Assembly (NCBI GenBank): GCA_964413645.1
Contig: CAYPSA010000002.1
Coordinates: 86,508 to 150,507 of the forward strand
Direction of reading: 5' to 3'
DNA from: an uncultured Gammaproteobacteria bacterium
GTDB taxonomy: Bacteria; Patescibacteriota; Microgenomatia; UBA1406; HO2-37-13b
DNA: 64,000 bases
The number at the start of each line of letters is the position of its first letter. The stretch's first letter is position 1. A model generated the notes under the pieces. The model saw only the letters and a program-made list of their open reading frames with translations, was not told the origin of the DNA and ran no database searches. A program made the position numbers and the translations under genes. Positions 9,207-61,356 of the stretch are shown piece by piece.

Positions 9207-9209
9207 CGT

Positions 9210-29047: not shown

Positions 29048-30749
29048 ATAACTTTAAGAATACTTCTTTAGGAATTTCAACGGATCCAATATTCTTCATT
29101 AATTTCTTTCCGGCTTTTTGCTTCTTTAACAACTTATCTTTTCGACTTCTATCTCCTCCATATAGACCTGATGTAACGTCTTTTCTAAAAGGCGCAATTC
29201 TGTTCGAAGCAATAATTTTTCCTTTATATTGTGCTTGGATTTTTACTTCGTATTGCTGACGAGGAATAAGTTCCTTTAGTTTTGAAGTAAGCTCAGAACC
29301 CCTTTCATATGCTTTCTCTGCAACAATGTATTCAGAAAATTCGTCGACCGGTTCTAAATTCAACATAATTACCAGTTTATCTGCATCTACCCGTCGATAC
29401 TCTTTAAACTCCCATTGAAGAGACGCATATCCAGAAGTAATTGTTTTAAGTCGATCAAAAAAACTTCCCATAAGTTCGGCCATTGGAATTTCGTAGGAAA
29501 GATACACGTGAGATTTATTATCCATATGCAGGAATGTTGCTCGCGCTTCATCAGCTTGTCGCATAACTGCACCCACATATTCTTGCGGAGTAACAATATC
29601 AACCGACGCAATGGGCTCTTCAAATACTTTTTTTCCATGTTCCATTGCTTCATGATAATCAACCGTAGGCGAAGTAAGCACAATATTTGCATTGAATTCA
29701 CGTTCAAGTCGCTGTCTAACAACGTCCGCGTGAAGTAGACCCAGAAATCCTACTCGCAATCCCGACCCAAGGGCTTTGCTAAATATTGGTTCAAACGTTA
29801 ATGCTGAATCATTGAGCGTTAGTTTTTCCATTGCATCAATAAGGCTCACATACTCATCGGGATCCGTTGGGAACATCGATGAAAATACCATTGGCTGCAC
29901 TTTTCGATATCCTGGAAGCGCGTTAGAAGGGGAACTGGCAAGTGTTATAGTGTCTCCAACCTGTACTTGATGAATGTCTTTAAGATTGGTAACAATATAT
30001 CCAATTTCTCCGGCACCGAGCGTTTCTGTCGGAATCAATGCGGGCTTGAATATTCCCACCTCAGTTCCTTCGAATGTCAAATTAGTTGCATGTAAATGTA
30101 CTTTCATCCCTTTTTTTAAGCTTCCATCTACAATACGTACGAATGCTATAACTCCTCGATACTGATCGTAATATGAATCAAAAATCAGCGCCTTAACGCT
30201 CTCAGTTTGTGCAAGCGGAGCAGGGGGAACTTTCTTTATAACCTCTTGCAATAATTCACCTACACCTTGTCCGGTCTTTGCAGAAATTTCAAATATTTCA
30301 CTCTCATCGATTCCTAAAAATTGAGAAATTTCTACTTTTGTCCCAGCAACCCGTGCTGCTGGCATATCGATTTTATTCACCGCCGGAATAAGAACAATAT
30401 TTTGTTCTAGGGCTTTGTAGGTGTGTGCAATAGTTTGCGCCTGAATTCCTTGAGTTGCATCAACCAATAAAATTGCGCCCTCCACGCAAGCAAGTGTACG
30501 CTCCACTTCGTATGAAAAATCTACATGACCTGGTGTGTCGATAAGATTAAGAGCTACACCCTGGTATTCCATCTTCACTGGAGCAAGCTTAATCGTAATT
30601 CCGCGTTCGCGTGAAATTGGATTTGCGTCAAGCATCTGCGCCTCGTGTCGATCTTTATCAACCGTACCTGTGAGCTCCAAAAGTCTATCGGCAAGAGTAG
30701 ACTTACCATGATCAATATGGGCGATAATAGCAAAGTTTCTAATGTTCAT
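29037..30749 (-). CDS. lepA: translation elongation factor 4
   Basis: 570 aa with IRNFAIIAHIDHGKSTLADRLL, DTPGHVDF, NKID and the LepA C-terminal domain. Its 3' end overlaps the folD 3' end by 11 bp. Its start overlaps the stop of the upstream GT-C gene (ATGA). Confidence 0.95.
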   Translation of the reverse strand: MNIRNFAIIAHIDHGKSTLADRLLELTGTVDKDRHEAQMLDANPISRERGITIKLAPVKMEYQGVALNLIDTPGHVDFSYEVERTLACVEGAILLVDATQGIQAQTIAHTYKALEQNIVLIPAVNKIDMPAARVAGTKVEISQFLGIDESEIFEISAKTGQGVGELLQEVIKKVPPAPLAQTESVKALIFDSYYDQYRGVIAFVRIVDGSLKKGMKVHLHATNLTFEGTEVGIFKPALIPTETLGAGEIGYIVTNLKDIHQVQVGDTITLASSPSNALPGYRKVQPMVFSSMFPTDPDEYVSLIDAMEKLTLNDSALTFEPIFSKALGSGLRVGFLGLLHADVVRQRLEREFNANIVLTSPTVDYHEAMEHGKKVFEEPIASVDIVTPQEYVGAVMRQADEARATFLHMDNKSHVYLSYEIPMAELMGSFFDRLKTITSGYASLQWEFKEYRRVDADKLVIMLNLEPVDEFSEYIVAEKAYERGSELTSKLKELIPRQQYEVKIQAQYKGKIIASNRIAPFRKDVTSGLYGGDRSRKDKLLKKQKAGKKLMKNIGSVEIPKEVFLKLFKN

Positions 30750-32434
30750 GTTCGTTTATATATTCGTATAACTGGGTGATCAAAAACACTCCACGTTTCA
30801 TCATACTGTTCATCGGGGAATTCGATGAGTGTTTTTCCAAATAATTCAATCTTGGGATATGAAGTAAATCGTTTAATTTCAGAGTATTCTAATTCACCCG
30901 ATAGTAGTTTATCATAATATTCATTCGTAACGGGGAACAAACGCTTTAAGTCCTCACATCTTCTCTTGGAAAATCCCCAATTATTTTTCCCACTTTCCAT
31001 TGCGCACGTTACCGATCCAGCTACTCTGCGTGAGGGAATAACAATATAATCAGACTCTTGTATGGCTTGTACCAAAGTAGTTTGTAGCGTTTTATCATGG
31101 TCGACTTGATAGAAATCAAAGTTAATTATTTGGTGATTAGGAATTACTCGACTTGCATTCTCTGGTACGGGAATATTTATAACGTTACCTGCTTCTGAAA
31201 AAATCTGAGCTTGTTCTGGAATAGTATCAAATATCCAAATAGATGCCTGAAAACGGACATCGTGATTTTGATAAATCGATACATATGCAATTCCAGGGAG
31301 AGATATGAGAAATATTGAGACTCCAAGAAAAATTCTTTTTACTTTATAATTCCGAATATGTAATAAAATCCTAATTAAAAACAACACTCCAAAAATACTT
31401 GCAATAGCCAATGCTGGAGCCTCAAACCGTGTCCACTTAACAAATAAAAATGATGAAGGGATGAAATATAGTAAAAACGCTATTCGTAAAATTACCAATC
31501 GAATATCGCGCCATTTCAAAAATACAAATCCTCCAAAAAAAAGGGTAAAAGTTCCAATACCTAGGGCGACTGGAAAAATATTTACTAGCTGATAGATAAC
31601 TGGAATACTAAATAAAAATTGTCGTGTATAAAAAACTGCAATTGCACCAGATGCAATTTTTGATTCATAAGTAATAGTAGAAATAAAATCGAGAGTAGAT
31701 ATAAGCATATGTGGCGATGCGAGGAATGCAAACAAAACTGTGACAAAAGTCAAAATGGAAATTTGGTTAATGAAATTCAGTAGAAAAAGGTAGAGTTTCG
31801 CTTTTGTTTTATATAAAGTCCATGTAGCGACCAACAGTGGTAACGCCAAAAAGGTTGCGGATGAAATTTTTGTACCAATTGCTAAACCAGCTAGTATTCC
31901 AAGTGACAAAAGTGAGCGGCGAGTAATTTCTTTATTAACGCCAATCTTAAGTGAAAGATACAAAATACCCAAATAAAAACTAGTCAACATTGATTCAGTT
32001 GTTCCAAAATGTGCAAATTGAATAGCGTACGGTGAGAAAACAAACAGGAACATACAAACAATCAGAGATAATTTACCGAAATATTCCCAAAAAAAATCCT
32101 TTAATATTCGATAGATAATCCACAAACTCGCCCACGATGACAAAACAGAAATATATCGAAGCGCAATTGTTGCGGATTCGAATGAAATGTTTTCTTTGAA
32201 AGCTCCTTGCAATATAAAACTCAAAACTTGAACTAAAAAATATGCGATATATAACGGTAATTGGCCATAAGCAAAAAAATGAGGATTCAATTGTTCTGAC
32301 AATTTGAGAGATTGTACCGCTACGGCCATGTTGCGCTCATCGGGATGCATTGGATAGGGAAGACCCCACGTAATTCCAACCAATCTAGAATATAGTGCAG
32401 ATGCAACTAGTAACACAATGAGAAATCTCTTCAT
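30746..32434 (-). CDS. GT-C fold polytopic membrane glycosyltransferase (GT39/ArnT/PMT-like)
   Basis: Start taken at MKRFLIVLLVASALYSRLVGITWGLPYPMHPDERNMAV (the ORF-track start 32536 would overrun the divergent gene). Has a first-loop DE motif, ~12 predicted TM segments and a soluble C-terminal domain. Confidence 0.75.
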   Translation of the reverse strand: MKRFLIVLLVASALYSRLVGITWGLPYPMHPDERNMAVAVQSLKLSEQLNPHFFAYGQLPLYIAYFLVQVLSFILQGAFKENISFESATIALRYISVLSSWASLWIIYRILKDFFWEYFGKLSLIVCMFLFVFSPYAIQFAHFGTTESMLTSFYLGILYLSLKIGVNKEITRRSLLSLGILAGLAIGTKISSATFLALPLLVATWTLYKTKAKLYLFLLNFINQISILTFVTVLFAFLASPHMLISTLDFISTITYESKIASGAIAVFYTRQFLFSIPVIYQLVNIFPVALGIGTFTLFFGGFVFLKWRDIRLVILRIAFLLYFIPSSFLFVKWTRFEAPALAIASIFGVLFLIRILLHIRNYKVKRIFLGVSIFLISLPGIAYVSIYQNHDVRFQASIWIFDTIPEQAQIFSEAGNVINIPVPENASRVIPNHQIINFDFYQVDHDKTLQTTLVQAIQESDYIVIPSRRVAGSVTCAMESGKNNWGFSKRRCEDLKRLFPVTNEYYDKLLSGELEYSEIKRFTSYPKIELFGKTLIEFPDEQYDETWSVFDHPVIRIYKRT

Positions 32435-32471
32435 ATCCCAATTATACAAAGATCTGTCATATAATAGAGCA

Positions 32472-33731
32472 ATGCTTAAACATGCGCATTCTCTATCAAA
32501 AAATAAATTTGTGCGCGGAGGAATAATTGTTACCACTACTTCTTTTCTCGCAAACGTTTTAAATTATTTTTTTCAGAGTTTACTAGGACATACCCTTGGC
32601 AGTTCTGGATTCGGCGAAATCGCTGCGCTTTTTTCATACATTGCGCTCATTTCAGTTCCATTATCAGTAATCACAACAATTATTATTCAAAAGGTTAGCT
32701 CTTCAAAAGATAGTATCGCATATGCACATGAACTCGAAAGCTTCTTTGTCGATAAATTACGAAAGTGGTGGTTTTTACTCGTGATTCCATTTCTTGCAAT
32801 TCCATTTATTCCGCGACTTACTAATCTTTCTGTCGTCACCTCATATATGCTTGTTCCTTTTCTCATTATTTCACTTGTTTCAATCTTTCACACTTCTGCA
32901 CTACAAGGCTTGGCACTTTTTTTTGAATTTTCAATCGTAAACTTACTCGCAACAGTTTTTAAATTAATGGGGCCTCTGTTGGTTTTGTTTCACGTTGGAG
33001 GCTTACCTACGGTATTACTATTCATACTTCTATCGGCACTATTTTCACTTATTGCCCAAGTGAGCATATTTAGAAAATATGTTGCCAAACATGCCTTAGA
33101 ATCCAAAAACATGCACATTGAAAAACGGCTTATTTCTTTCCTTTCAAACAAACAATTTGCTATTACGTTATTTTCACTTTTGTCTATTGTTGCATTGAAT
33201 AACATCGACATCATTCTAGTAAAGAAATTTTTTTCGAGTACCGATGCAGGATTGTATGCCGCATGGTCACTATTTGGAAAAATAATCTTTTATCTTTTTA
33301 GTCCTGTTGCTTCTGTATCGTTCGTTTTTTTTGCGAAAAACCATGGAAAGCGTGCGCAGAACGCAATGCTTCTATTTTTCATGTGTATGCTCGTAATTAC
33401 AATCAGTGCATACCTAGGTTATCACTATTTAGGTAGAATATTTATTCCACTTTTCTTTGGGAACCAATTTATCGCAGTTATTCCACATCTTGGTCTTGCT
33501 AGTTTATTTGGATCTTTATACACCGTAATCTTTTTTATAAATAATTACTTTCTTGCAAAGGTAAGTAAGTTCGCGCTCATTTTGCCGTTAAGTATTCCGC
33601 TGTATGTTGCGGCTATTTATTTCTCACAACACACAATAGAATCAATATTTCTCATTGATGTATATTTTGTAACGGGACTTACAGTACTGTACAGTGGAGC
33701 ATATGCTCTAAAAATCAGACGCGAAGCTTGA
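32472..33731 (+). CDS. MOP-superfamily oligosaccharide flippase (Wzx/PST-like)
   Basis: Start at MLKHAHSLSKNKFVRGGIIVTTTSFLANVLNYFFQSLLGHTLG (TATAAT 32460-32465 lies 6 nt upstream). ~12 TM segments. The N-terminal pattern is typical of polysaccharide transporter family proteins. Confidence 0.7.
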   Translation: MLKHAHSLSKNKFVRGGIIVTTTSFLANVLNYFFQSLLGHTLGSSGFGEIAALFSYIALISVPLSVITTIIIQKVSSSKDSIAYAHELESFFVDKLRKWWFLLVIPFLAIPFIPRLTNLSVVTSYMLVPFLIISLVSIFHTSALQGLALFFEFSIVNLLATVFKLMGPLLVLFHVGGLPTVLLFILLSALFSLIAQVSIFRKYVAKHALESKNMHIEKRLISFLSNKQFAITLFSLLSIVALNNIDIILVKKFFSSTDAGLYAAWSLFGKIIFYLFSPVASVSFVFFAKNHGKRAQNAMLLFFMCMLVITISAYLGYHYLGRIFIPLFFGNQFIAVIPHLGLASLFGSLYTVIFFINNYFLAKVSKFALILPLSIPLYVAAIYFSQHTIESIFLIDVYFVTGLTVLYSGAYALKIRREA

Positions 33732-34125
33732 TGGTTTTTGTTGTTGAGGTACCATCTTGAAATGTAATTACCACTGTTAAAACCGCATTTTTGAGGTTCT
33801 TATGATACCTACATACTTTATTTGAACACGTTCCAAAAAGCAATTTTCTACTTAAACTATATTTGCCCTTAGTAGTGATAGTTCCTCCCGCTCCTTCTTG
33901 CTTGCCATTAGTAAGGTAACTAAGCTGATACTGAACATTTTTAGTTTTTTGTAAATTCGCTAAATACACTGTAACCGACTGTTTATTTGGAGCAACTGAT
34001 GAGCTCACAACTACATTTGCCTTTTTAGGAACTTTTTTTGCAGCATGCACATTCTCGTGTGAAGAAAGTGAGAATACAGCTAGTAATAGAACAGAAATAG
34101 TCACGAGCGATTTTTTGATAAGCAT
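33715..34125 (-). CDS. small secreted hypothetical protein
   Basis: 136 aa with signal peptide MLIKKSLVTISVLLLAVFSLSSHENVHA and a beta-rich, Lys/Thr-rich body. Its 3' end overlaps the flippase 3' end by 17 bp. Confidence 0.55.
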   Translation of the reverse strand: MLIKKSLVTISVLLLAVFSLSSHENVHAAKKVPKKANVVVSSSVAPNKQSVTVYLANLQKTKNVQYQLSYLTNGKQEGAGGTITTKGKYSLSRKLLFGTCSNKVCRYHKNLKNAVLTVVITFQDGTSTTKTIKLRV

Positions 34126-34317
34126 ACTTTACTGTATCAGTATTAATGAGTTTTGTAAAGTATTTTCTATGCGAGCGGGTGCGCCGACCTGCCTTGCCGT
34201 CAGGCAGGCCCCGCAAGCAGACTCAATTATTAAGAAGCTGTGTATCCCGCGGAACATATAGAGCCTATTAGCAACATGCACATAGATTTTTACACAATTT
34301 ATGTATAAAATACTCAC

Positions 34318-35085
34318 ATGGACTCCAAAAAAAATACTCATTTTTTAAGTCTTATTGTTCCGGTATATCGCCAGGAAAAAACAATCGTTGCTAACTTGAA
34401 AGAAATCTCACGAGTGCTTGAAGAAATTCGATATGATCATGAAATTATCGCAGTTATTGATGGACTTGTAGATGACGCGTACAAGAAAATTAAAACTGCG
34501 CATATTCCAAAAGTAAAAACAATTGCTTACAAAAAAAATCAAGGAAAAGCATGGGCGCTTCGACTTGGTCTAGCCAATGCAAAAGGGGATTACGCAATGT
34601 TTATCGATTCAGGACTTGAAATTGACCCGAATGGAATTTCAATGCTTTTAGAACACATGGAATGGTATAACGCCGATGTTATCGTTGGATCAAAACGTCA
34701 TCCGGCTTCGCAAGTGCACTATCCACTAAACCGCAGAATATTGAGTTATGGATATTACCTACTAGTAAAAAGCCTTTTTGGAGTAAAAGTACAAGATACT
34801 CAAGCGGGAATAAAAATTTTCAGAAAGCCAGTTTTAGAAAAAATTCTACCTCGTCTTCTTGAAAAAAAGTTTGCAGGAGACCTAGAAATGCTTATTGCTG
34901 CACGTAGTATGGGCTTTACACGCATTTTTGAGGCACCAATAAAAATGGATTATTCAATAAGCCCGCTTACATCTGCGGCAACTGTTAATTCGATCATAGG
35001 TATTTTTGTCGATACGTTGGCACTTTTTTATCGCGCTAATATTCTGCGCTATTACAGTCCAAAAAGGAGTAAAGTTGTAGTATGA
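34318..35085 (+). CDS. GT2 glycosyltransferase (polyprenol-phosphate sugar synthase-like)
   Basis: 255 aa with LSLIVPVYRQEKTI, AVIDGLVDD, AMFIDSGLE and QAGIKIF, typical of DPM1/GtrB-like GT2 enzymes. Confidence 0.85.
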   Translation: MDSKKNTHFLSLIVPVYRQEKTIVANLKEISRVLEEIRYDHEIIAVIDGLVDDAYKKIKTAHIPKVKTIAYKKNQGKAWALRLGLANAKGDYAMFIDSGLEIDPNGISMLLEHMEWYNADVIVGSKRHPASQVHYPLNRRILSYGYYLLVKSLFGVKVQDTQAGIKIFRKPVLEKILPRLLEKKFAGDLEMLIAARSMGFTRIFEAPIKMDYSISPLTSAATVNSIIGIFVDTLALFYRANILRYYSPKRSKVVV

Positions 35086-36116
35086 AACAGTCGTTTGTTT
35101 CCGTAATTATTCCGCTTTTAAAACTTTCTGATACGTTGATCGAGGAAAGTTTGCCCGCCTTTGACCAACAAACACTCAAGCATTTTGAAGTAATTATGCT
35201 TCCTAACGAATCCTCAAGTATCGACAAAGAACTACTAAGAAAGTACAAATTCCTCAGAATTATACCTACAAAGAATATTACCCGACCCGCATTAAAACGT
35301 GATATCGGTGCGGAGAATGCGAAAGGAGATATTTTAGCATTTATTGATGACGACGCATATCCACAAAACGGGTGGCTTAAAAACGCAGTGCATATTTTCA
35401 ACAAAAAGAATGTCGCGGCCGTTTGTGGTCCAGGAATTATTCCAAAAAACGCCCCTCTTTGGGAGAAAATATTTGATGAAGTTCTTAAAACTAAAATGGG
35501 GAGTGGGGGCTTTGCATACCGGTTTGTCAAACAACCAGCTAGGTACGTTGACGACTATCCTTCAATGAATTTTCTCATAAAGAAAAGTGTCTTCAATACT
35601 TTAGGAGGCTTTAATAACGACTTTTGGCCGGGTGAAGACAGCAAGTTATGTGAAGATATTGTATATAAATTAGGCGAGAAGATATATTATGATCCTACAG
35701 TCACTATTTATCATCATCGTCGTAACGACTTAAAAGGATATTTGCGTCAGCATGGAAACTATGGTTTTCACCGCGGAGCATTTTTTGCCCATGGCGACAA
35801 AAATTCTCGCCGAATTACATATCTGATCCCCACATTCTTTTTACTATATATATTTTTTCTTACATCCTTAGGGCTATTTATTCTTTTAAGAGGATCTGCA
35901 CTAACTCTATACATATATATTTGCACCTCTCCGGCCATTCTTTATGCTTTACTATTACTTTTACAGGTACGAAGTGCTTTCAAAAACACAAAGAGCTTGA
36001 AAATATCGATTCTATCAGCTATAGTCTTATTTTTAACACACGTAATTTACGGAGTTGAATTTGTTAAGGGGTTTTATACAGGTCTAACAAAAAATGAAAA
36101 AATCTATGGCAAGTGA
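35082..36116 (+). CDS. GT2 glycosyltransferase with C-terminal transmembrane domain
   Basis: 344 aa with VSVIIPLLK, DxD in FIDDDAYP, GEDSKLCEDI, and three to four C-terminal TM segments. ATGA overlap with the upstream gene. Confidence 0.85.
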   Translation: MKQSFVSVIIPLLKLSDTLIEESLPAFDQQTLKHFEVIMLPNESSSIDKELLRKYKFLRIIPTKNITRPALKRDIGAENAKGDILAFIDDDAYPQNGWLKNAVHIFNKKNVAAVCGPGIIPKNAPLWEKIFDEVLKTKMGSGGFAYRFVKQPARYVDDYPSMNFLIKKSVFNTLGGFNNDFWPGEDSKLCEDIVYKLGEKIYYDPTVTIYHHRRNDLKGYLRQHGNYGFHRGAFFAHGDKNSRRITYLIPTFFLLYIFFLTSLGLFILLRGSALTLYIYICTSPAILYALLLLLQVRSAFKNTKSLKISILSAIVLFLTHVIYGVEFVKGFYTGLTKNEKIYGK

Positions 36117-36351
36117 TGTGCAAAGCATAAAACGAGGCGATATTGAAATTAAAATTACTCGACCAACGTGTATTTCGGCCGCAACATGTGTTGTGTATGC
36201 ACCAAACACATTCGACTTAGATGAAGAGAATATTGCAATCATTAAAGAAGGCGAATGGGACAAAGTAGAGAAAATCATTGCCGCAGCACAATCATGTCCG
36301 GTTTTAGCAATTGAAATTTGGCAAAAGGGAACAAAAGTTTACCCAAAGTAA
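36094..36351 (+). CDS. small single-cluster ferredoxin
   Basis: 85 aa with the three-Cys pattern C-x5-C (CISAATC) ... CP (SCPVLAI), as in mono-cluster 3Fe-4S/4Fe-4S ferredoxins. The start may be 36106. Confidence 0.65.
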   Translation: MKKSMASDVQSIKRGDIEIKITRPTCISAATCVVYAPNTFDLDEENIAIIKEGEWDKVEKIIAAAQSCPVLAIEIWQKGTKVYPK

Positions 36352-36357
36352 AGAGCC

Positions 36358-36386
36358 TTGACATCTTCTAGTTGTCATGACATACT
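36358..36386 (+). promoter_or_regulatory. putative promoter of the radical SAM gene
   Basis: TTGACA (36358-36363), a 17-nt spacer, then CATACT (36381-36386). ATG 36395 follows 8 nt later. Confidence 0.45.
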
Positions 36387-36394
36387 AAATAAAT

Positions 36395-38122: not shown

Positions 38123-38298
38123 GTGACACTCTAAGGCATATTTACTTTCGTATGAGTCTGGCGTAAGAAATACTGAACCGCCATCAGTGTCTCCATTATT
38201 TCCTTTTGCCGAAGTTGACGCACAGCACCTAACCTGAACTCGATACGGATCGGGACTTCTGGATACAGCTCCATCAATTCCTCGATAAGATCAGCGAG

Positions 38299-39159: not shown

Positions 39160-39208
39160 ATATATAGTATATATTATACAATTATTCTATTAAACGTAGG
39201 AGAGTAGC

Positions 39209-40786: not shown

Positions 40787-40815
40787 ATAGTCTTCATTAT
40801 TTTACTAGATATTTT

Positions 40816-40836
40816 GTTACAATACATGTTTGTAAC
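40816..40836. promoter_or_regulatory. candidate operator palindrome GTTACAA-N7-TTGTAAC
   Basis: Perfect 7-bp inverted arms in the 53-nt divergent region between genes 39209-40786 (-) and 40840-41841 (+). It overlaps a TACAAT (40818-40823). Confidence 0.3.
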
Positions 40837-40839
40837 GCT

Positions 40840-41841: not shown

Positions 41842-41846
41842 TATTT

Positions 41847-42248: not shown

Positions 42249-42250
42249 TT

Positions 42251-43818: not shown

Positions 43819-43819
43819 T

Positions 43820-45813: not shown

Positions 45814-45814
45814 T

Positions 45815-47155: not shown

Positions 47156-47192
47156 GGCCCTTCATAATTGAGTATATCAACGATTAGGAATT

Positions 47193-48332: not shown

Positions 48333-48367
48333 GTGGTGTATTATACTATGCCAACAATCAAAAGATT

Positions 48368-49408: not shown

Positions 49409-49418
49409 TTTATCACAC

Positions 49419-54300: not shown

Positions 54301-54558
54301 CAATACGGTGAGGTACGTACGGAAATGTGGACTGATACAAAGATAGTTTTTGAAGCACCTCTTTCATGGGTGCCAGGTGAAATGCAATTCAGAATAGTAA
54401 AACCAAGTAATTACGAAGGTCGTCATATTTATGCAGTAAGTAAGATTTTCAAACTTCAACTTCTACCACGTGGAAATGGATTCACTCCAATGGACGATGA
54501 GTTTTTTAGACAATTAAAGGATCTTGATCCTGAAACACGTCAAATAAATGGATACTAA
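51346..54558 (+). CDS. giant polytopic membrane protein: GT-C-like N-terminal module, extracytoplasmic domain, second TM bundle, C-terminal IPT/TIG-like Ig domain
   Basis: 1070 aa. ~12 TM segments in residues 1-410, a soluble region ~420-700, six more TM segments ~705-930, and a C-terminal beta-sandwich (PVVKKVEPQIIYSSTKVIIWGKNFG...MQFRIVKPS). Confidence 0.7.
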   Translation: MVMKNLLLKIYPALAILLFPVFFVHRLFKDNYLFYGEERGFLNYDFVNYRYDSVWETAKNFGAITSNHFNIFTTGLFWKITSYFGVSNLHAEMLFYYFITLVTILFGYLAFKKVSNGKGLSLLMSLTYITTYNYYATITTTPKMLHVIILPMTLYFWLEFIDTKKLRYFMLNTLFLGLFLGIGINPPQMIGAYMFIFLYIGFFNFQRKNIPYIALFLAPFLLNVLFVLILNIIVIHFSGQVFSYDIFKEVFSATKSVAYEIMRFFGAWWDYAGSGGLFYNHIGPYYHSIPGVIITFIPFALFLYLISEQARENIPLRNKLIALTLLLLFFVKGGAMPFGELFDKAYQNIGLLRIFREPWAKFIVNFIFAVYLSIVYLYTTTHERAKNIVLYAITFLFIYQLIPLMLGLVIDHRNISWKISDVNVPAYWNNIQVWTKQNTQDKRMLVLPARVDDGGTLIQNWKPYYFIGYPDDYYIYGDIINSQYNSDEDKYITQNFLKNLTPQLLQMASVEYVVEKLDVAPQQDQILIESNSVNDVLNEQEKLRFDGVNIFPLKPNAKTQRLRPMSKILSAPQDCSVFFKKYKTSDFASNSYIHTNVPAIAGNVSKSNPQISRIDKTEYKVDFDQTAESNTALFLAESFNAGWQWYSSTSIFARPVEIESNHQKANCFANLWIFPKNETLANPTLYLRYTPQIMYDRMKLAYIVIISVLIMIGFVITRKRKSTQTNDGQVNVFSPHRVITSLFMKFKPKHFGRINIEYRLIFLAITLTMLLFDFLDPRAYHDLFVVVFTIFWMVTSIAYKFNPRVNMYAAYFFLFLVIINRLTSFVYMADKLGVWTIMFITYIGLYSLIYDYITVERTNTFELFMKKVKEDIAYFEKYHNTILSKSLWFLHRILERSRYWIIRIYGMKGKTTRDWLLLWSKIAVTAVILSIGFYVFNKVDSKLNRFSFDPVVKKVEPQIIYSSTKVIIWGKNFGWKEQDGSILQNQYGEVRTEMWTDTKIVFEAPLSWVPGEMQFRIVKPSNYEGRHIYAVSKIFKLQLLPRGNGFTPMDDEFFRQLKDLDPETRQINGY

Positions 54559-56041
54559 AAAAATTTCATTAATCGTTCTTTCCATCATAATCGCTGCGGG
54601 TCTCTATTTTCGGATCGTAGGTATTCAAAAAAATTTGTCTTTTTGGAATGATGAATCGCATGCGGCAATTTATTCGCGCGGAGTTGCACAGACTGGCCTT
54701 CCACGCGATACAGAGGGTCGCGGACGAGGTATTTATCAGATCGGGCTGTACTATGTAACCGGTGCAAGCTTTAAGCTATTTGGAATTTCGCAAACCAGTG
54801 GACGGATTCCTTCGGTTGCAATAGGAACTATTCTCATTGGCGTCATATATTTTGTAACAAAAAGGGTGACGAAAGGGGAATTACCCGCGCTTCTATCGAG
54901 TTTTTTGATAGCATTTTCGCAAATACAACTCGCTTGGTCTACACAACTTCGGCCATACATTTGGCTAGAACTTTTTTCGCTACTGGTCTTTTACTTAGTA
55001 GTTAAGTCATTGGAGAGTAAAGCACGGATCTTTGATAAATATTTTTTAATCGCCACAACACTCGGGGCACTTTCGTATTTATTTCACCCAATTGGATTCT
55101 TTAACATAATTTTCTTATTCGGTATTTTTTCTTACAAGAGTTTGATGGCTAAGAAATGGTGGTATTTGTTTTCAATTATTCCGCTTGGAATTATTACATT
55201 CTTTTTAATTTATTTTTCTATTGGACGAAACATTGGCGACTTAATTACATTCGTATTAAAGATCAATACCAACACGCTTCACTATCGAGTTTTTTTGAGA
55301 GCCAATTACGATTGGCTACTTTTAGGTGCGGGAATTGGGGCTCTGTATTTGTCTAAATTAGAGAGAAAAATGGCGATCGCACTGACGAGCTTCATTGGAC
55401 TCATTTTGTTTCTAGCGATTTTTAAAATTAATGCATCGTATGTTCGTTATTGTTTACCAGCTTTCCCACTAATATACATCTTATTTAGCGCGGGAATTGA
55501 AGGACTCAGTGTATATTACGCAAACTATACGAAAAAGAGAAAATTATATGCGCCATTTTTTTTACTCTTTGCTGTGATTTTTCTATATTTCCCCATGCAG
55601 CGAAATAAAATTCTAACAAGTCCTCGTTTTTATTACACCATTAACGGCGATATGCGCGAAAATCCAATAGTCGATTATCAAAAAGCATTTGACCAAATTT
55701 CACAGATGATCGAGGGAAAAGATTCGCTCATTCTTATGGACGCGTGGAACGATCGAATTCCGTGGTATTTGCCAGGAAGAAAATATATTTTCTTAGTTAA
55801 AAATGAGAAAAAGATTGATCCAACATTTAACGAACCTATGATCGGTACTATTGAAGGGTTTGAACAGGAAAAGAAAAAATACAAAAGCGGTCTAGTTATT
55901 GTTGAAAATTGGGAAAGCCTAACACCGCCCGATTTGCAAAAGCATATTCGCGATACGCTACATCATGACTTTGATGTTCAAAATTTACCGTATAATGAAG
56001 CAGATAGATGGGGGATTAGTATTTACAGTTGGGGATTATGA
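54548..56041 (+). CDS. GT-C fold membrane glycosyltransferase (GT39/GT83 ArnT-like)
   Basis: 497 aa with the first-loop motif FWNDESHAAIYSRGV, ~11 TM segments and a soluble C-terminal domain. Confidence 0.75.
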   Translation: MDTKKISLIVLSIIIAAGLYFRIVGIQKNLSFWNDESHAAIYSRGVAQTGLPRDTEGRGRGIYQIGLYYVTGASFKLFGISQTSGRIPSVAIGTILIGVIYFVTKRVTKGELPALLSSFLIAFSQIQLAWSTQLRPYIWLELFSLLVFYLVVKSLESKARIFDKYFLIATTLGALSYLFHPIGFFNIIFLFGIFSYKSLMAKKWWYLFSIIPLGIITFFLIYFSIGRNIGDLITFVLKINTNTLHYRVFLRANYDWLLLGAGIGALYLSKLERKMAIALTSFIGLILFLAIFKINASYVRYCLPAFPLIYILFSAGIEGLSVYYANYTKKRKLYAPFFLLFAVIFLYFPMQRNKILTSPRFYYTINGDMRENPIVDYQKAFDQISQMIEGKDSLILMDAWNDRIPWYLPGRKYIFLVKNEKKIDPTFNEPMIGTIEGFEQEKKKYKSGLVIVENWESLTPPDLQKHIRDTLHHDFDVQNLPYNEADRWGISIYSWGL

Positions 56042-57318
56042 TAAAAAAAGGATTTGTTACAACTATAATATTCGCACTCAGCACGCTTGTGCAGCTCATA
56101 AGCCAGATCATCGTGACTAGAATATATGGAGCGTCGCTGTCACTTGATATTTTTCTTGCCTCTGTAGCAGTTCCAACAGTAATCGTAACGGTCATTTATG
56201 CCACACTTAACGATACATTTCTTCCAGAACTTGCTTCAAAAAAAGAAGAAGATCGTGAAGAATTTTTGCTCGGTAATTTGCTGACAATTGGCGGTGTTAC
56301 CTTCATTGTTTCGGTTCTTACCAGCTTCTTATCTGATTCAATTAGCTTGTGGTTATACGCCCCTCGTGGAGCTGAATTCGTATATCAAGTCTCATTTCAG
56401 ATGCGATATCTATTTTTAAGTATTCCGCTTTCTGTTATTGCGACAATGCTTGGAAGTTATTTTTATGCGAAAAAAGATTTTGTTCGATTCCCAATCGCTC
56501 AACTGGTGGGGAGCTTAGTAAATGTTCTCATGATTGTTGTACTTGCCCCAATAGTAGGAATTTGGGCGCTTATTAGCGCATTTGTCGTAAACATTCTCAT
56601 TCAAATACTTTTTGTCATTCCAAAAGCTTTGTTTACCACAACACCGCTTTTCTCAAATCCAATCGCGCTGTTACTTACCTGGCTTCCCCTTATCGTTGGA
56701 AACTTTGCAATGCGCTCGGATGCAATTCTTATTCGCTCACTTGGGGCAGATTTGCCCAGTGGATATTTGGTGTATTTAAATTTAGTTACAAAAATCTTTG
56801 CGCTTGCAACAAGCGTGGCAACAATTGGCGTACAAGTATTATTGTTACCACACCTGGTAGAGTACTTTAATAAGCAGGAACTTAATAAGGCATTCTCGAC
56901 CGTTAGGAGAGCAAAGGTGGGCGCCATACTTATTTCGGTTGCAGTTACGATCCTGCTAGTTTTTGTTGCTCCAATCGTTATTTCACTTGTTTTCGTTGGC
57001 GGTCAATTTACTCAGCATGACGCTCAAGTCACCAGTTCTATGATTCCTCTCTTTATTGTCCCTGCAATAGGGTGGGGAATAAATTCAATATTTATGCAAC
57101 CGCTTATCGCATTAAAAAAACGCTATTTAGTAGGCACTATTAACGTAGGATCTATGATTATGGGATTTGGTGTTGGGAATCTTATAAATTCTCAACTGGG
57201 TCCTTTACAAGGAATTGTTTGGGGTCTAACTACGCTTATTTTTTCTGGTATCATTGGAAATGAACTCGTATGGCAATACTACAAACGAAAACTCCAAAAG
57301 TCTCAGTTGTTATCGTAA
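56038..57318 (+). CDS. MOP-superfamily flippase (MurJ/MviN- or Wzx-like)
   Basis: Start at MIKKGF (ATGA overlap with the upstream stop; the ORF-track TTG is at 56029). 12-14 TM segments. The N-terminus LISQIIVTRIYGASLSLDIFLASVAVP resembles MurJ-family proteins. Confidence 0.72.
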   Translation: MIKKGFVTTIIFALSTLVQLISQIIVTRIYGASLSLDIFLASVAVPTVIVTVIYATLNDTFLPELASKKEEDREEFLLGNLLTIGGVTFIVSVLTSFLSDSISLWLYAPRGAEFVYQVSFQMRYLFLSIPLSVIATMLGSYFYAKKDFVRFPIAQLVGSLVNVLMIVVLAPIVGIWALISAFVVNILIQILFVIPKALFTTTPLFSNPIALLLTWLPLIVGNFAMRSDAILIRSLGADLPSGYLVYLNLVTKIFALATSVATIGVQVLLLPHLVEYFNKQELNKAFSTVRRAKVGAILISVAVTILLVFVAPIVISLVFVGGQFTQHDAQVTSSMIPLFIVPAIGWGINSIFMQPLIALKKRYLVGTINVGSMIMGFGVGNLINSQLGPLQGIVWGLTTLIFSGIIGNELVWQYYKRKLQKSQLLS

Positions 57319-58058
57319 ATTACCACACTGACCAGCTTGTTTTGAATTTATTGTCACAGTTAGGTGATAATAGCGATATTGAAATATTACTTGTCGATAA
57401 CAGCTCCACTTCTAGTTTAGAGAGTAAGCTACCAAAGTATAAATCGATAATTTATTTATTTCAAAATAAAAATCGTGGTTTTTCGGGCGGAAATAATGTG
57501 GGAATCAAGCGGGCGACAGGGGAGTGGGTGTTTTTATTGAATAGCGACACCCTTACATCGGGGAAAGAAATTCTCAAGCTAGTAGATGTTTGCGAAAGAA
57601 CAAATGTATCAGTTGGGGCTCCCTGCTTGGTAAATGAAGATGGATCATTTCAGCAATCAGCTGGATATTTTAATGCTCCGCATAAAGGAGTAGTTAACTG
57701 GCTTCTGGCACGTCCGCGTTTTATTGGTGGTTCGGTTGCAGAGAATATGCAGGTTGATTTTGCAACGGGTGCCGCGCTATTAATTAAGAAATCTATATTT
57801 GAAAAGATAGGACTATTGGATGAAAAAAGTTTTTTCATGTATTTTGAAGATATTGATTTTTGTTATCGACTGTGCAAAGAAAAAATTTCTATCTTATATA
57901 CTCCTTTAATTAAAATCACTCATTTCAGCGGCAAAAGTGCCGATCAAAATTTGCATGAAAAAAATGTGAATTATACTAACGCACGAAATGCATACATAAA
58001 AAAACACCGAGGAAGTTTTGTATTATTACTAAATAATGTTTTTAAATTATTTGTGTAA
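57270..58058 (+). CDS. GT2 glycosyltransferase (rhamnosyltransferase-like)
   Basis: 262 aa with VSVVIVNYHT, LLVDNSS, LLNSDT, FMYFEDIDFCYR. Confidence 0.85.
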   Translation: MAILQTKTPKVSVVIVNYHTDQLVLNLLSQLGDNSDIEILLVDNSSTSSLESKLPKYKSIIYLFQNKNRGFSGGNNVGIKRATGEWVFLLNSDTLTSGKEILKLVDVCERTNVSVGAPCLVNEDGSFQQSAGYFNAPHKGVVNWLLARPRFIGGSVAENMQVDFATGAALLIKKSIFEKIGLLDEKSFFMYFEDIDFCYRLCKEKISILYTPLIKITHFSGKSADQNLHEKNVNYTNARNAYIKKHRGSFVLLLNNVFKLFV

Positions 58059-58088
58059 TCCGGCAATTCTGGAGATGAGACATTTCAT

Positions 58089-59519
58089 ATGAATAGTAAA
58101 ATAAATGCAAAGATTCTGTCGCTATTTATCGCAATTCTTTCATTTTTAGTCCTTTCTTACAAGCTAACCTCATCGTTCATTTTTCACCCTGATTTTGCTC
58201 GTGATGTATTTGATATTACCCGAATTTCACAAGGGAAAATGATGCTCGTCGGTCCAAAACTTACATTTGGAGGAATTTATTCAGGACCATACTACTACTA
58301 TTTATTACTCCCAGTTTTTGCACTGTCAAACTATTCAATCAATGCGTTACTCTATTTCAACACTGCTCTTTTTGCGCTGGCTTTAGGGTTCTTTTTTTAT
58401 GAGCTCTCTAAACGATTCTCCGTCTATAAAAGCATCTTGGGGGTATTGATTATTCTATTTTCGCCCTTTTATTTAATCGCATCTCGTAACCCAAGTAACG
58501 CGTTTACCTACATTCCATTTTTACTAGTACTCATGACAATTCTTTACTTTTATAAAATTTCTAAACCAAGACAATTACTTATACTGGGAATATTTGCAGG
58601 AATTCTCATAACCTTTCATTTAGTTGTTGGTAGCGTAATTCTTTTCACGACTCTTCTCTTACTCACTGATGTTAAAAAAAAACGTGATTTTTTCTGGTAC
58701 TTTCTAGGCTTTCCAATAGCATTTCTCCCACTCATTCTTTTTGAATTTAAACATAATTTCATCATGCTCAAAAATACGTTTGTCGATAAATCATATCTAC
58801 TTTGGATAAAAAATAGCAATATTCCCGATGGAATTACCGGCAAGAAAAATCCAGTAGAAAACTTTATTTTTATTAGTCAAGCAATTCAAAAATTCACCGT
58901 TGCAAGTCCACTTGTATTATTTTTCTTAGCAGGTATAAAACATTTTTTTCGCAAATTTAAAGGAAAAGATAGTCTATTACTGATAAGCAGTTTACTCTCA
59001 TTGGCATTCTTAGCGTTATTTATGCGCTTCCAATTTATTTATCATTACCTATTCGCAACAATTTTGCTTTTACTATTTACTACTGTAATTATTTTTCTTA
59101 GGCAAAAGTGGCACGTATTACTATTTATTCTTCTTGCATTTGAACTAGCCAATATTCCAAAAGAGATTTATGATAAGTCCTGGCGCACGTATCAGGCATT
59201 TGAACAAGCCGTTGACCATGTTCTAGAGAATAAATTACTTCTTAAAGGTGAAAATTTTAATGTAATTCAAGTCACTGAACCTGATTTACTTTCTCCAAAT
59301 GGATTTGAGTATCGATATAATTTGCAACGTAACGGGTTTAAGCCAACATCGGAATTTGAATATAAAACGTCAAGAAAGTTATTAATCTTTAGTGAAAAAC
59401 CAGAATATGATATAAAGAAACTTGACAGTTGGGAATCACGTGAATTTGGCGTGCAACATTTGACAAAAGCTAAAAAATATTCATCAGGAAAAATCACCAT
59501 TTATGTCACAGAAAAATAA
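58089..59519 (+). CDS. polytopic membrane protein, GT-C-like (ArnT/PMT_2-like), tentative
   Basis: 476 aa with a first loop carrying D-rich FHPDFARDVFDI, ~11 TM segments and a ~110-aa soluble C-terminus. Confidence 0.65.
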   Translation: MNSKINAKILSLFIAILSFLVLSYKLTSSFIFHPDFARDVFDITRISQGKMMLVGPKLTFGGIYSGPYYYYLLLPVFALSNYSINALLYFNTALFALALGFFFYELSKRFSVYKSILGVLIILFSPFYLIASRNPSNAFTYIPFLLVLMTILYFYKISKPRQLLILGIFAGILITFHLVVGSVILFTTLLLLTDVKKKRDFFWYFLGFPIAFLPLILFEFKHNFIMLKNTFVDKSYLLWIKNSNIPDGITGKKNPVENFIFISQAIQKFTVASPLVLFFLAGIKHFFRKFKGKDSLLLISSLLSLAFLALFMRFQFIYHYLFATILLLLFTTVIIFLRQKWHVLLFILLAFELANIPKEIYDKSWRTYQAFEQAVDHVLENKLLLKGENFNVIQVTEPDLLSPNGFEYRYNLQRNGFKPTSEFEYKTSRKLLIFSEKPEYDIKKLDSWESREFGVQHLTKAKKYSSGKITIYVTEK

Positions 59520-60345
59520 AAAAGTTAGCATTATAGTTGCGGCATATAACGAGGAAAAACGAATAGAGGAGTGTTTGGCTTCTCTTTCTAAACAGGACTA
59601 CGGATCGTATGAAGTTATCCTCACCGATGACGGATCGTTTGACGACACTGTTTCAATTGCAAAAAAATTTCCGATCAAAATCATAAAGAACAATCATCTG
59701 GGTACTGCAAAAAGTCGTAATAAAGCAGCTTCTCAAGCTACCGGAGAGATTCTTGCTTTTTTGGATGCTGATATGACATTTGAACCCAATTTCCTAAGCA
59801 AACTAGTGCTTCCCATAAACAATGACGAATCAAAAGGAACTTTTTCCAAACTTGAATACGTAAAAAATTGGAACAATCCAATCGCTCGCTTATGGAATTG
59901 GGTTAATAATCCCGAGCTTCCTGATAAATATCGAGTATCGCAAAAAAGTAACACAGGCGAGGATTTCAGAGCACTTTTAGCTTCAGAATTCCATAGAGTC
60001 GGGGGGTTTGACGACACAGGGTATACCGATACGTGGAGTTTGGCAAAAAAGCTTAGCTACAAACCAACGAATGCGGCAGGGGCCATGTATTATCATTACA
60101 ATCCTGAGTCTTACGAGGAGGTCTTACATCAAGCGGCGTGGATAGGGAGACGGACTTACAAATTTGGAATCTTGGGAGACTTGATCGCGTTTGCGCGAGC
60201 AAATCCAGTATCTTCGGTACTCAAAGGAATAGTTCTAATGTTCAAGAAAAAGGAACTGCGAGCAATTCCATTTCAATTACATTATGATGCAGGCATTATG
60301 ACAGGATTACTTTCTCGACTATTCTCGGGGAAACTGAGTAAATAA
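59503..60345 (+). CDS. GT2 glycosyltransferase
   Basis: 280 aa with VSIIVAAYNEEKRIEECLASLSKQDYGSYEVILTDDGSFDDT and FLDADM. Confidence 0.85.
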   Translation: MSQKNKKVSIIVAAYNEEKRIEECLASLSKQDYGSYEVILTDDGSFDDTVSIAKKFPIKIIKNNHLGTAKSRNKAASQATGEILAFLDADMTFEPNFLSKLVLPINNDESKGTFSKLEYVKNWNNPIARLWNWVNNPELPDKYRVSQKSNTGEDFRALLASEFHRVGGFDDTGYTDTWSLAKKLSYKPTNAAGAMYYHYNPESYEEVLHQAAWIGRRTYKFGILGDLIAFARANPVSSVLKGIVLMFKKKELRAIPFQLHYDAGIMTGLLSRLFSGKLSK

Positions 60346-61356
60346 TTATTCCTCCCATCCGTTTGGATGATTTGTATACCAGGTCACGAGAGATCTTACA
60401 CTATCTTCGAGTGAATGCGTTGGTTGCCAGCCTAAAACTGATGTAATTTTTTTATTTGAAGCAACTGCCCGCGACACATCTCCTTTTCTAAGATCGCCCT
60501 CTCCAATTTCGAATTCCTTACCAGTAATTTTTTTAACTGCATTTATAATCTCCAAAACTGAATTTCCAACACCAGTTCCCAAATTAAAAATATCTGACCC
60601 ATCATTTGTTTCTAAATATTGCACTGCCTTTATATGAGCGTTGTTTAAGTCAACCACATTTACATAATCTCGGATTGGTGTTCCATCCGCCGTGTTAACT
60701 TTAGGACATGTCAGCTTAAATTCAGCAATTCCCAAAGCCCCACGAACTGCATTCTGCATTAAATGAAATGAGGGTTTTTTTGAGTCGCCAATACTTCCAT
60801 CATCCGTTGCTCCACACACATTAAAATATCGCAAGAAGATGTATTTAATTCCATAAATTTTGGAATACCAATCTATGACCCGCTCGCTCATATATTTTGA
60901 TTCACTATATGGATGTGATTGTGGACTAATAGGATGTGATTCATCAAAAAATTCTGTTTGAGGTTCACCGTAAATAGAGCATGTGGATGAGAATACGAGT
61001 TTTTTGAGCCCGTGTGCTCTCATTGCCTCCAAAAGCGATACGGTAGTTGCAATATTATTTCCAAAATATAATTCTGGATGCAGCTCCGATTCTCCGACAT
61101 TACAAAATGCAGCGTAGTGAATTACAGTATCAATATTTGGTTCTTTAGAAAAAACTTCGTCCATGCCCGTTCGAATATCGACCTTGTAAAATCTAATTTT
61201 ATTCTCGCCATGTTTTTCTTGCAGAGCTTTCAGAGGACCCGAAAAACCGCGAACATAATTATCAACTCCCACAACTTCATACCCGGCATCTAAAAAAAGG
61301 GAACACGCAACAGATCCAATATAACCGCCAGCTCCGGTGATTAAAATCTTTTTCAT
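60346..61356 (-). CDS. galE: UDP-glucose 4-epimerase
   Basis: Start at MKKILITGAGGYIGSV. Motifs SSTCSIYGEP, YSESKYMSE, LRYFNVCGA, DGTPIRDYVNVVDL. Confidence 0.85.
   Translation of the reverse strand: MKKILITGAGGYIGSVACSLFLDAGYEVVGVDNYVRGFSGPLKALQEKHGENKIRFYKVDIRTGMDEVFSKEPNIDTVIHYAAFCNVGESELHPELYFGNNIATTVSLLEAMRAHGLKKLVFSSTCSIYGEPQTEFFDESHPISPQSHPYSESKYMSERVIDWYSKIYGIKYIFLRYFNVCGATDDGSIGDSKKPSFHLMQNAVRGALGIAEFKLTCPKVNTADGTPIRDYVNVVDLNNAHIKAVQYLETNDGSDIFNLGTGVGNSVLEIINAVKKITGKEFEIGEGDLRKGDVSRAVASNKKITSVLGWQPTHSLEDSVRSLVTWYTNHPNGWEE

Follow-up and report, generated by a model that had tools for sequence, protein, structure and literature searches.

We analysed a window of 64,000 nucleotides (the whole stretch examined, positions 86,508 to 150,507 of contig CAYPSA010000002.1, assembly GCA_964413645.1) that holds a dense cluster of putative glycan-assembly genes. 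Twenty-seven genes are packed at positions 30746–61356, with lepA on one side and a csaA-like gene on the other (Table 1; genes are named here by the lower of their window coordinates). This island is ~97% coding, with almost zero intergenic space and frequent overlaps of start and stop codons; across 50339–58058 the overlaps are continuous, indicating translational coupling. The GC content is 0.368 inside the island and 0.40 in its flanks. Both flanks are of the housekeeping type. The first 30.7 kb of the window carry prs, recR, RNase J, cysS, S6, SSB, an S41 protease and HtrA, together with hisS, a release factor, gyrB, gyrA, folD and lepA, and housekeeping genes return right of 61.4 kb with the csaA-like gene, SIMPL and miaA. 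No tRNA or mobile element marks a boundary of the island, the sole tRNA of the window lying at 7072–7145. Gene starts were refined by eye, and a check of the open reading frames (ORFs) bore out the gene positions of an earlier annotation made from the letters alone (the sequence-only reading).

Table 1. Genes, borders and sub-modules of the island, in window coordinates.
Feature	Position	Strand	Length (aa)	Evidence or content
lepA	29037–30749			upstream border of island
Core GT-C, PMT_2/GT22/TMEM260-like family, 9+ transmembrane helices	30746–32434	-	562	family Pfam matches
Probable MOP/PST-type flippase, ~11 transmembrane helices	32472–33731	+	419	Polysacc_synt below threshold
Secreted protein	33715–34125	-	136	N-terminal signal/anchor
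GT2, polyprenyl-phosphate sugar synthase-like (DPMS/GtrB/ArnC-like)	34318–35085	+	255	PF00535, 79.5 bits
GT2, three C-terminal hydrophobic helices	35082–36116	+	344	PF00535, 50 bits
Ferredoxin-like ORF	36094–36351	+	85	Cys-x2-Ala-x2-Cys ... Cys-Pro motif
B12-binding radical SAM enzyme, HpnJ-like	36395–38122	+	575	Radical_SAM, 51.3 bits
ORFan	38299–39159	-	286	GC 0.45 (neighbours ~0.37)
GT-C membrane domain (PMT_2-like, ~10 transmembrane helices) with C-terminal tetratricopeptide repeats (TPR), TMTC-like architecture	39209–40786	-		TPR Pfam match; PMT_2 in homologues
GT2, two C-terminal hydrophobic segments	40840–41841	+	333	PF00535, 59 bits
FdtA-like 3,4-ketoisomerase	41847–42248	+		Pfam
Hexapeptide acyltransferase, NeuD/PglB/VioB-like	42251–42814	+		Pfam; 93 bits
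Short-chain dehydrogenase/reductase (SDR)	42811–43818	+		Pfam
DegT aminotransferase	43820–44914	+		Pfam
SDR	44911–45813	+		Pfam
RfbH 3-dehydrase	45815–47155	+		539.5 bits (equivalog cut-off 423)
Conserved protein	47193–48332	-	379	no family match
GT2, one C-terminal hydrophobic helix	48368–49408	+	346	PF00535, 111.4 bits
SDR epimerase/dehydratase	49419–50342	+	307	family match
GT2	50339–51346	+	335	PF00535, 86.8 bits
AftD-like GT-C	51346–54558	+	1070	predicted fold; weak PF11847
PMT_2-family GT-C, D35-E36 after first transmembrane helix	54548–56041	+	497	PMT_2, 40.3 bits (threshold 26.1)
MurJ-like MOP flippase	56038–57318	+	426	PF03023, 64.7 bits, above gathering threshold
GT2, soluble	57270–58058	+	262	PF00535, 74.6 bits
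GT-C, ArnT/ALG-like fold	58089–59519	+	476	AlphaFold2 fold
GT2	59503–60345	+	280	PF00535, 115.2 bits
UDP-glucose 4-epimerase GalE	60346–61356	-		TIGR01179, 318 bits (cut-off 262)
csaA-like tRNA-binding protein	61380–61718			downstream border of island
SIMPL	61790–62545			flank beyond csaA-like gene
Left sub-module	30746–36116			core GT-C, flippase, donor synthase, GT2
Middle sub-module	36094–51346			ferredoxin and radical SAM, TPR-GT-C, GT2, sugar genes, more GT2s
Right sub-module	51346–60345			AftD-like GT-C, then coupled PMT_2 GT-C, MurJ-like flippase, GT2, GT-C, GT2

Significant evidence for a glycan-related family was obtained for 22 of the 27 adjacent genes, and one further gene (32472) gave a sub-threshold match. 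Judged from these sequence matches, such a density of glycan genes among neighbours is far beyond chance. The island splits into three sub-modules, left, middle and right, and the named homologues of its proteins come from Roizmanbacteria, Microgenomates and other Patescibacteria.

Five polytopic proteins, for which hydropathy indicates 8–14 hydrophobic spans each, had been proposed as GT-C-like glycosyltransferases. All five belong to the GT-C superfamily, as judged for 51346 and 58089 by their predicted folds, for 54548 by a direct PMT_2 match and for 30746 and 39209 by Pfam matches at the level of the family; profile searches reassigned none of them to an unrelated membrane family. When the polytopic proteins, flippases and unassigned proteins were compared all against all by BLASTP, no pair was significant. 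The five GT-Cs thus did not arise as recent paralogues of one another, and each was tested separately.

Acidic residues following the first transmembrane helix (TM1) occupy the hallmark position of GT-C catalytic residues, as in ArnT, PMT and PglB. Directly after TM1, an acidic motif is present in all five proteins (DE32-33, DD39-40, EE37-38, DE35-36 and D35, in gene order). The motif is invariant in the alignments of 30746, 39209 (D39-D40) and 51346, and D35 and D39 of 58089 occur in at least 90% of sequences; the D35-E36 pair of 54548 was read from its own sequence alone. The Lys/Arg-rich N-termini suggest that this motif lies in the first extracytoplasmic loop.

No Pfam family matched 30746 itself. 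Among 35 aligned relatives, PMT_2 was matched by 18 (best E-value 8e-12), GT22 by ten and a TMEM260-like family by six, and an hhalign comparison of the 30746 family with the 58089 family returned a probability of 89%. The family, with at least 794 homologues at ~40–45% identity, shares an invariant H30-P31-D32-E33-R34 stretch after TM1 and a conserved C-terminal soluble domain. A fusion to DUF192 (PF02643) occurs in some of these homologues. Searching PDB sequences with profiles of the 30746 and 58089 families returned nothing useful. The membrane domain of 39209 has 28,064 representative relatives; homologues of this N-terminal domain matched PMT_2 in seven of ten cases tested, one of them (P0195) at 41.3 bits, above the gathering threshold, and a PDB profile search with the 39209 family returned TPR proteins only. 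54548 also gave a weak NCBIfam match to Agl23.

The two proteins assigned by fold are 58089 and 51346. The AlphaFold2 model of 58089 is of high confidence (pLDDT 93, pTM 0.92), and its top 25 PDB folds are all GT-C (25/25), including ALG12, ArnT (TM-score 0.58), PglB, ALG9, AftA, AftB, AftD and Pmt4. Its D35, R38 and D39 are near-invariant, and distant homologues carry PMT_2. The model of 51346 (pLDDT 74) comprises an N-terminal GT-C membrane domain, a beta-rich soluble domain (residues ~420–690), a second helical membrane bundle (~690–945) and, according to fold matches, a C-terminal IPT/TIG-like domain. Its top PDB fold in Foldseek is AftD (6wbx; E-value 1.2e-9 over 881 columns), followed by STT3, PglB and DPY19. 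A profile search against the PDB likewise placed AftD first with collinear segments, but with an E-value of only 0.39. The PF11847 score of 51346 itself, 11.6 bits against a gathering threshold of 26, lies below membership of the AftD Pfam family; weak PF11847 matches occur in 11 of 15 family members (best E-value 5.9e-6). The hhalign probabilities of the 51346 family against 30746 (8%) and 58089 (51%) are too weak to use.

The 51346 family is rare, with 14 homologues among 5.8 billion clusters. Its hosts are CPR (Candidate Phyla Radiation) phyla (Roizman-, Moran-, WWE3 and Saccharibacteria), one metagenome-assembled genome (MAG) of the Micrarchaeia and one MAG labelled Planctomycetia; no others were found. 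The relative in the Micrarchaeia, which are DPANN archaea (locus L015, 10001–12037), is 23% identical (E-value 2e-30), which hints that CPR bacteria and DPANN archaea share such genes. Further AftD-like relatives, 35–83% identical, occur in MAGs titled "uncultured Gammaproteobacteria" (L009, L011, L012 and L013), whose taxonomic labels look wrong; the L009 gene, 83% identical, lies on a 345,331-bp contig with other cluster proteins. A GAWWDY motif (residues 266–271), near-invariant in the family (14 of 15 members), lies between helices 207–237 and 297–308, in a long loop that is modelled with low confidence. It shares letters with the WWDYG signature of oligosaccharyltransferases (OSTs) at a non-equivalent position. 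We rejected WWDY as a sign of OST membership: the loop lies within the membrane domain, and the STT3/PglB/AglB motif follows the last transmembrane helix. The motif is missing from a PF11847-positive paralogue at L004:4996–7593.

As had been read from the sequence, the locus encodes seven GT2 enzymes, all seven above the gathering threshold of PF00535 (23.3 bits). The assignment of 34318 as a polyprenol-phosphate sugar synthase-like protein was also corroborated by its closest solved relatives. Its best PDB sequence matches are DPMS (5mlz, Pyrococcus; 4e-9), GtrB (5ekp; 8e-8) and ArnC (3e-6), with alignments that span residues 7–180, the whole catalytic domain, and weak NCBIfam matches point to PgfS, ArnC, PpgS and AglJ. 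34318 has no transmembrane helix, the C-terminal helices of DPMS, GtrB and ArnC not being present. On these similarities, 34318 probably makes a single-sugar lipid donor. 35082 gave an MftF-like NCBIfam match at 86 bits, below cut-off. We considered 40840, 57270 and 59503 as lipid-phosphate sugar synthases and rejected them, their PDB matches being generic GT2 enzymes (for 40840, e.g. TarS).

Two MOP flippases had been named, of which one is firm. 56038 exceeds the Pfam gathering threshold for the MurJ family, but at 76.6 bits it stays far below the cut-off of the MurJ equivalog TIGR01695 (235.55). The other, 32472, reaches 25.7 bits for Polysacc_synt (E-value 9.4e-6, over 275 residues) against a threshold of 28.2. 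A PDB profile search with 32472 gave no match, hhalign against MurJ-like and PST proteins gave a probability of 4.9%, and BLASTP against the PST flippase of the complete Roizmanbacteria genome CP066689.1 (locus L008) found nothing; an ortholog of 32472 is conserved in GCA_034680565.1 (locus L021). In a multi-component system, the flippase slot might be filled by the MurJ-like MOP protein, which is present and kept in its module.

The locus was also scanned for the parts of classical polysaccharide pathways, across the cluster ORFs of at least 100 amino acids and the scanned upstream genes. Neither a phosphoglycosyltransferase (PGT) of the WecA/MraY type (PF00953) nor one of the WbaP/PglC type (PF02397) was found in this set. 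The cluster ORFs gave no family match to Wzy_C, O-antigen polymerase or Wzz/PCP, and the locus none to an ABC exporter (ABC-2 permease and ATPase) or an LCP ligase. Every polytopic protein of the locus is accounted for as GT-C or MOP, and the gaps between the ORFs leave no space for a further gene of these kinds. These scans agree with the earlier failure to recognise Wzy, Wzz, an ABC exporter or an initiator by eye; no canonical Wzy, Wzz or initiating gene was found within the locus.

This result bears on the proposal that the island is a Wzx-dependent locus for a repeat-unit polysaccharide or an S-layer glycan, in which a PGT encoded elsewhere would prime undecaprenyl phosphate, the GT2s would assemble a repeat unit, the MOP flippases would export it and one or more divergent GT-Cs would act as polymerase or ligase, not as decorators with single sugars. 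Such a locus would explain the two MOP-family proteins beside six non-synthase GT2s, the O-antigen-like sugar genes (FdtA-like, DegT, RfbH) and the low GC content and variable right end, as in serotype loci; the large soluble domain and IPT/TIG domain of the AftD-like protein could bind polymer. Yet no Wzy_C, O-antigen polymerase, Wzz, LCP or PGT family is represented in the locus, and the folds of 51346 and 58089 match lipid-phosphate-sugar GT-Cs and OSTs, with nothing WaaL/Wzy-like among the matches listed. We regard this explanation as rather improbable.

Comparison with related genomes showed which parts of the island travel together. In one relative (L007, with 83% identity of the AftD-like protein), the genes from GT2 40840 through galE, csaA, SIMPL and miaA are kept, the region retrieved excluding the left end. 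In GCA_034680565.1 (L003/L021), at 44–58% identity, the left two-thirds are kept in the order lepA, 30746 homologue, flippase, small protein, GT2, GT2, ferredoxin, radical SAM, TPR-GT-C, GT2, sugar genes, a 377-amino-acid gene, GT2 and AftD-like gene; the right end differs and carries AsnB, GT1 and a YfhO-type GT-C. CP066689.1 holds a PMT_2, MurJ-like, GT2, GT2 set and a homologue of 58089 beside B12-radical SAM genes, the 58089 homologue being 50% and the flippase 55% identical to those of the window. In the window, 54548, 56038, 57270, 58089 and 59503 follow one another with overlaps, and CP066689.1 has the same genes in a slightly different order; 54548 is conserved there and in L007. The glycan module of CP066689.1 adjoins an intein-containing phage-type integrase with a LAGLIDADG domain and GIY-YIG fragments (L008 1673–3874 and 9262–9830). 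A metagenomic locus (L004 4996–19287) combines a PF11847-positive AftD-like gene, a 702-amino-acid homologue of 51346, two unannotated proteins (704 and 712 amino acids), a PMT_2 GT-C, a GT2 and a PST flippase; GT-C-dense loci are thus a repeated feature of these lineages.

The leftmost gene has a different distribution. Homologues of 30746 at ~42% identity (L005 8001–9782 and L006 8001–9662) stand alone between S6/SSB and SIMPL or cysS, in a housekeeping block of ribosomal-protein and tRNA-synthetase genes, without GT2 or flippase neighbours. Because these homologues are solitary, whereas the rest of the island shows a conserved core and a replaceable end among relatives, 30746 is a lineage-wide core enzyme and the remainder a variable island, which behaves as a serotype-type glycan locus. 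The earlier description of the locus as a single "supercluster" does not hold: it is composite.

The same distribution raises the question whether part of the locus is an accident of adjacency, in which a housekeeping GT-C (30746), and possibly a lipid II flippase (56038), lie beside an ordinary variable polysaccharide island, and the dedicated components would be fewer than were counted. The solitary homologues have no glycan genes near them, SIMPL flanks the island here too, and 56038 is assigned to the MurJ family. Against this, in the 58% relative GCA_034680565.1 30746 is still accompanied by the flippase and both GT2s; the MurJ-like gene overlaps with the GT-C and GT2 genes beside it, its context is kept in CP066689.1, where the flippase is 55% identical, and its score is far below the MurJ equivalog cut-off. 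An accident of this kind seems to us somewhat unlikely.

On balance, we consider it fairly probable that the 30-kb stretch is a surface-glycan biosynthesis island of Candidatus Roizmanbacteria (CPR/Patescibacteria) and that it works as one or more multi-component transmembrane glycosylation systems. This interpretation, the most parsimonious one, is supported by the GT-C status and conserved acidic motifs of the polytopic proteins, the likeness of 34318 to lipid-phosphate sugar synthases, a MurJ-like flippase above threshold, translational coupling, the recurring module, synteny, the lowered GC content, the negative scans of the locus for classical polysaccharide parts and the precedents for a GT-A enzyme with a Wzx- or MATE-type flippase and a GT-C (PMC8035078, PMC11127046). 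From the observed families, folds, gene order and conservation we infer the following course, in which the donors, the direction of flow and the acceptors are conjectural. Cytoplasmic enzymes would first make unusual nucleotide sugars: one of the 3-acetamido-3,6-dideoxyhexose type through the FdtA-like gene, DegT and the acyltransferase, one of the 3,6-dideoxyhexose type through RfbH, and UDP-Gal through GalE. GT2 enzymes would then load sugars on polyprenyl phosphate, 34318 probably making the single-sugar lipid donor and the other six probably building or extending a lipid-linked glycan. In a third step, the MOP flippases (56038 firm, 32472 probable) would flip the lipid-linked sugars across the membrane, and on its outer side the GT-Cs would transfer them to extracytoplasmic acceptors.

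Several observations weigh against a transmembrane glycosylation system. A lipid-phosphate sugar synthase is recognisable in one of the seven GT2s, set against five GT-Cs, and most GT-Cs therefore have no assigned donor. 32472 stays below its Pfam threshold and has no other support, the MurJ-like 56038 could be the lipid II flippase of the cell's peptidoglycan synthesis, and no GtrA-type flippase was found among the locus ORFs, the gaps between which are too small for an unannotated gene. Since 30746 is solitary elsewhere, it may be functionally unrelated to the island. An initiating enzyme could lie elsewhere on the 153-kb contig, outside the window. Of the view that the locus serves extracytoplasmic glycosylation rather than a classical Wzy pathway, the GT-Cs, 34318 and the missing Wzy parts uphold the general direction; the proposed acceptor and the single-unit status were not upheld.

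The acceptor may be a protein, a lipoglycan or a wall polymer. Protein acceptors are plausible in view of the TMTC-like TPR fusion and the PMT_2 affinity of the GT-Cs. In its strongest form this becomes a scheme in which protein O-glycosylation is the main output, the PMT_2-type and TPR-fused GT-Cs using the 34318 donor to modify Ser/Thr of secreted proteins (Pro/Thr-rich linker proteins such as 205–1872, pilins or S-layer proteins). Three to four of the five GT-Cs fall in the PMT_2/TMEM260/GT22 neighbourhood, the TPR fusion mirrors the eukaryotic TMTC O-mannosyltransferases (PMC7801869), 34318 is DPMS-like, and a dockerin membrane protein with a Pro/Thr linker is encoded within the window. 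This protein (205–1872, + strand), suggested earlier as an acceptor, does exist: it is membrane-anchored, with a Pro/Thr linker of ~65 residues (~197–262 of the ORF starting at 166) and a type I dockerin domain at the C-terminus. However, no finding ties this protein to the locus, and it lies 29 kb off among housekeeping genes. Moreover, the PMT_2 family extends to enzymes that modify lipids and polymers, ArnT among them, and simple O-mannosylation would have no need of so many cytoplasmic GT2s or of deoxy-amino-sugar genes. Protein O-glycosylation as the main output is unlikely in our judgement. A dockerin is also encoded near the core GT-C in L006, as part of an M4 peptidase.

A far more speculative, and in our estimate very improbable, elaboration of the transmembrane glycosylation reading draws on analogy with ALG and arabinogalactan assembly. 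By this "inside-then-outside" scheme, CPR bacteria might build a lipid-linked core by GT2s without a canonical PGT in the locus, flip it by MurJ-like MOP proteins and extend it outside by GT-Cs, including the CPR/DPANN-restricted AftD-like enzyme; GAWWDY would hint at OST-like acceptor binding, and the TPR-GT-C would pass the glycan on to proteins of the surface. More generally, any ALG- or arabinogalactan-like scheme, with a lipid-linked glycan built inside and finished outside, fits the six additional GT2s and the pair of flippases; so does a Wzx repeat-unit pathway whose initiator is encoded elsewhere, and the data do not separate these readings.

The nucleotide-sugar tailoring genes and galE noted earlier were confirmed by Pfam families, with RfbH and GalE above their equivalog cut-offs. 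RfbH, the CDP-4-keto-6-deoxyglucose 3-dehydrase, is present in a cluster without a recognisable E3 reductase, cytidylyltransferase or CDP-glucose 4,6-dehydratase equivalog. The "GT-B-like" label of 47193 found no backing in Pfam, NCBIfam or the PDB: there was no Pfam match (E-values up to 10) and no NCBIfam match, and the PDB returned only a spurious hit to ribosomal protein eS10. Orthologs of 47193 are present at a conserved position in GCA_034680565.1 (L003, 377 amino acids) and in L007, and its cluster at 90% identity has seven members.

Other genes were absent from the sequence-only reading, namely 33715, 36094, 36395 and 38299. The small secreted protein 33715 has a counterpart of 139 amino acids in GCA_034680565.1 (L021) and is conserved with its module. 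The Fer4 and radical SAM pair, here 36094 and 36395, recurs at L021 5219–5464 and 3453–5180 and at L008 19826–20041 and 18166–19824. Three Roizmanbacteria genomes, L003/L021 and L008 among them, carry a B12-radical SAM gene inside a glycan cluster. The HpnJ score of 36395 (141 bits) is far below the cut-off of 577, and a sugar may be its substrate, with C-methylation or a ring rearrangement as conceivable reactions. The ORFan 38299 gave no family match and is a singleton at 90% identity; its slot in GCA_034680565.1 (L003) holds a different, 156-amino-acid YdjM-like gene, and it is probably not part of the pathway. Outside the island, Mur-ligase-like, alpha/beta hydrolase, DegT aminotransferase and FemAB-family genes form a block at 7249–11425 (+ strand), which may be a separate set for peptidoglycan stem-peptide or sugar modification.

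Attachment to other microbes is characteristic of CPR/Patescibacteria, whose surface chemistry has hardly been studied. For a Roizmanbacteria surface glycan, the locus provides a definite set of conserved genes that is testable in heterologous hosts, offering a likely lipid-phosphate sugar synthase and a MurJ-like flippase locked in a GT-C/GT2 module. It also contains a rare AftD-like GT-C, so far almost confined to CPR and one DPANN genome, and it illustrates that structure prediction can assign Pfam-negative CPR membrane proteins to GT-C. Our search of the literature on CPR and GT-C found no prior description of such a locus. Peribacteria were remarked in 2016 to carry ~8 dolichol-phosphate mannosyltransferase-like genes (PMC4736985), and a 2024 preprint on Saccharibacteria pili called glycosylation in that group "unexplored" (PMC11623550).

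Among known systems, Wzx/Wzy loci share with the island the low GC content, one or more MOP flippases, numerous GT2s and FdtA/DegT/RfbH-type genes for deoxy-amino sugars, but the island has no detectable PGT, Wzy, Wzz/PCP or ligase and carries GT-Cs instead. Eukaryotic and actinobacterial protein O-mannosylation by PMT, TMTC1-4 and TMEM260 and the ArnC/ArnT modification of lipid A resemble it in their PMT_2-type GT-Cs with an acidic pair after TM1, in the TMTC-like TPR fusion of 39209 and in the DPMS/ArnC-like donor synthase 34318; sequence identity to their characterised members is negligible, and only 54548 passes the family threshold. The assembly of mycobacterial arabinogalactan and lipoarabinomannan (AftA-D, EmbA-C) likewise uses several GT-Cs to extend a flipped lipid-linked glycan outside. 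Like AftD (PDB 6w98/6wbx), its best structural match, 51346 has its GT-C domain at the N-terminus and a large soluble domain after it, but a second membrane bundle and an IPT/TIG domain stand in place of the C-terminal architecture of AftD, and no decaprenyl-phosphoarabinose genes (UbiA, DprE) occur in the locus.

Closer in organisation are the multi-component transmembrane glycosylation systems of Gram-positive bacteria, such as GacIJKL of Streptococcus pyogenes, CsbB/GtcA/YfhO and lactococcal CsdAB/CD/EF (PMC8035078). As in the GacIJKL/CsbB type, the locus combines a likely GT2 lipid-phosphate sugar synthase with a candidate flippase and a GT-C, and those systems too lie within larger wall-polysaccharide clusters rich in GT2s; as in CsbB/YfhO, GCA_034680565.1 carries a YfhO-family GT-C in the equivalent position. 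Unlike the GacIJKL type, the island has five GT-Cs of four subfamilies for one recognisable donor synthase, it lacks an ABC exporter, an LCP ligase and a GacO/TagO-type initiator, and it occurs in a CPR bacterium whose envelope is uncharacterised. In the Gac system, GacK is a Wzx-type flippase in place of GtrA (PMC8035078). The three-component pentofuranose systems described by Kelly et al. 2024 combine a MATE-family flippase with a GT136 GT-C (PMC11127046). Like these, the island pairs a MOP-superfamily flippase with a GT-C, putatively for post-assembly extracytoplasmic glycosylation, but their donor enzyme is a polyprenyl phosphoribose synthase, not a GT2, and the island has no such gene. 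Given the GacK and GT136 precedents, a Wzx/MATE-type flippase in the place of GtrA is no novelty. The architecture of the island agrees with that of known multi-component glycosylation systems and overturns no model.

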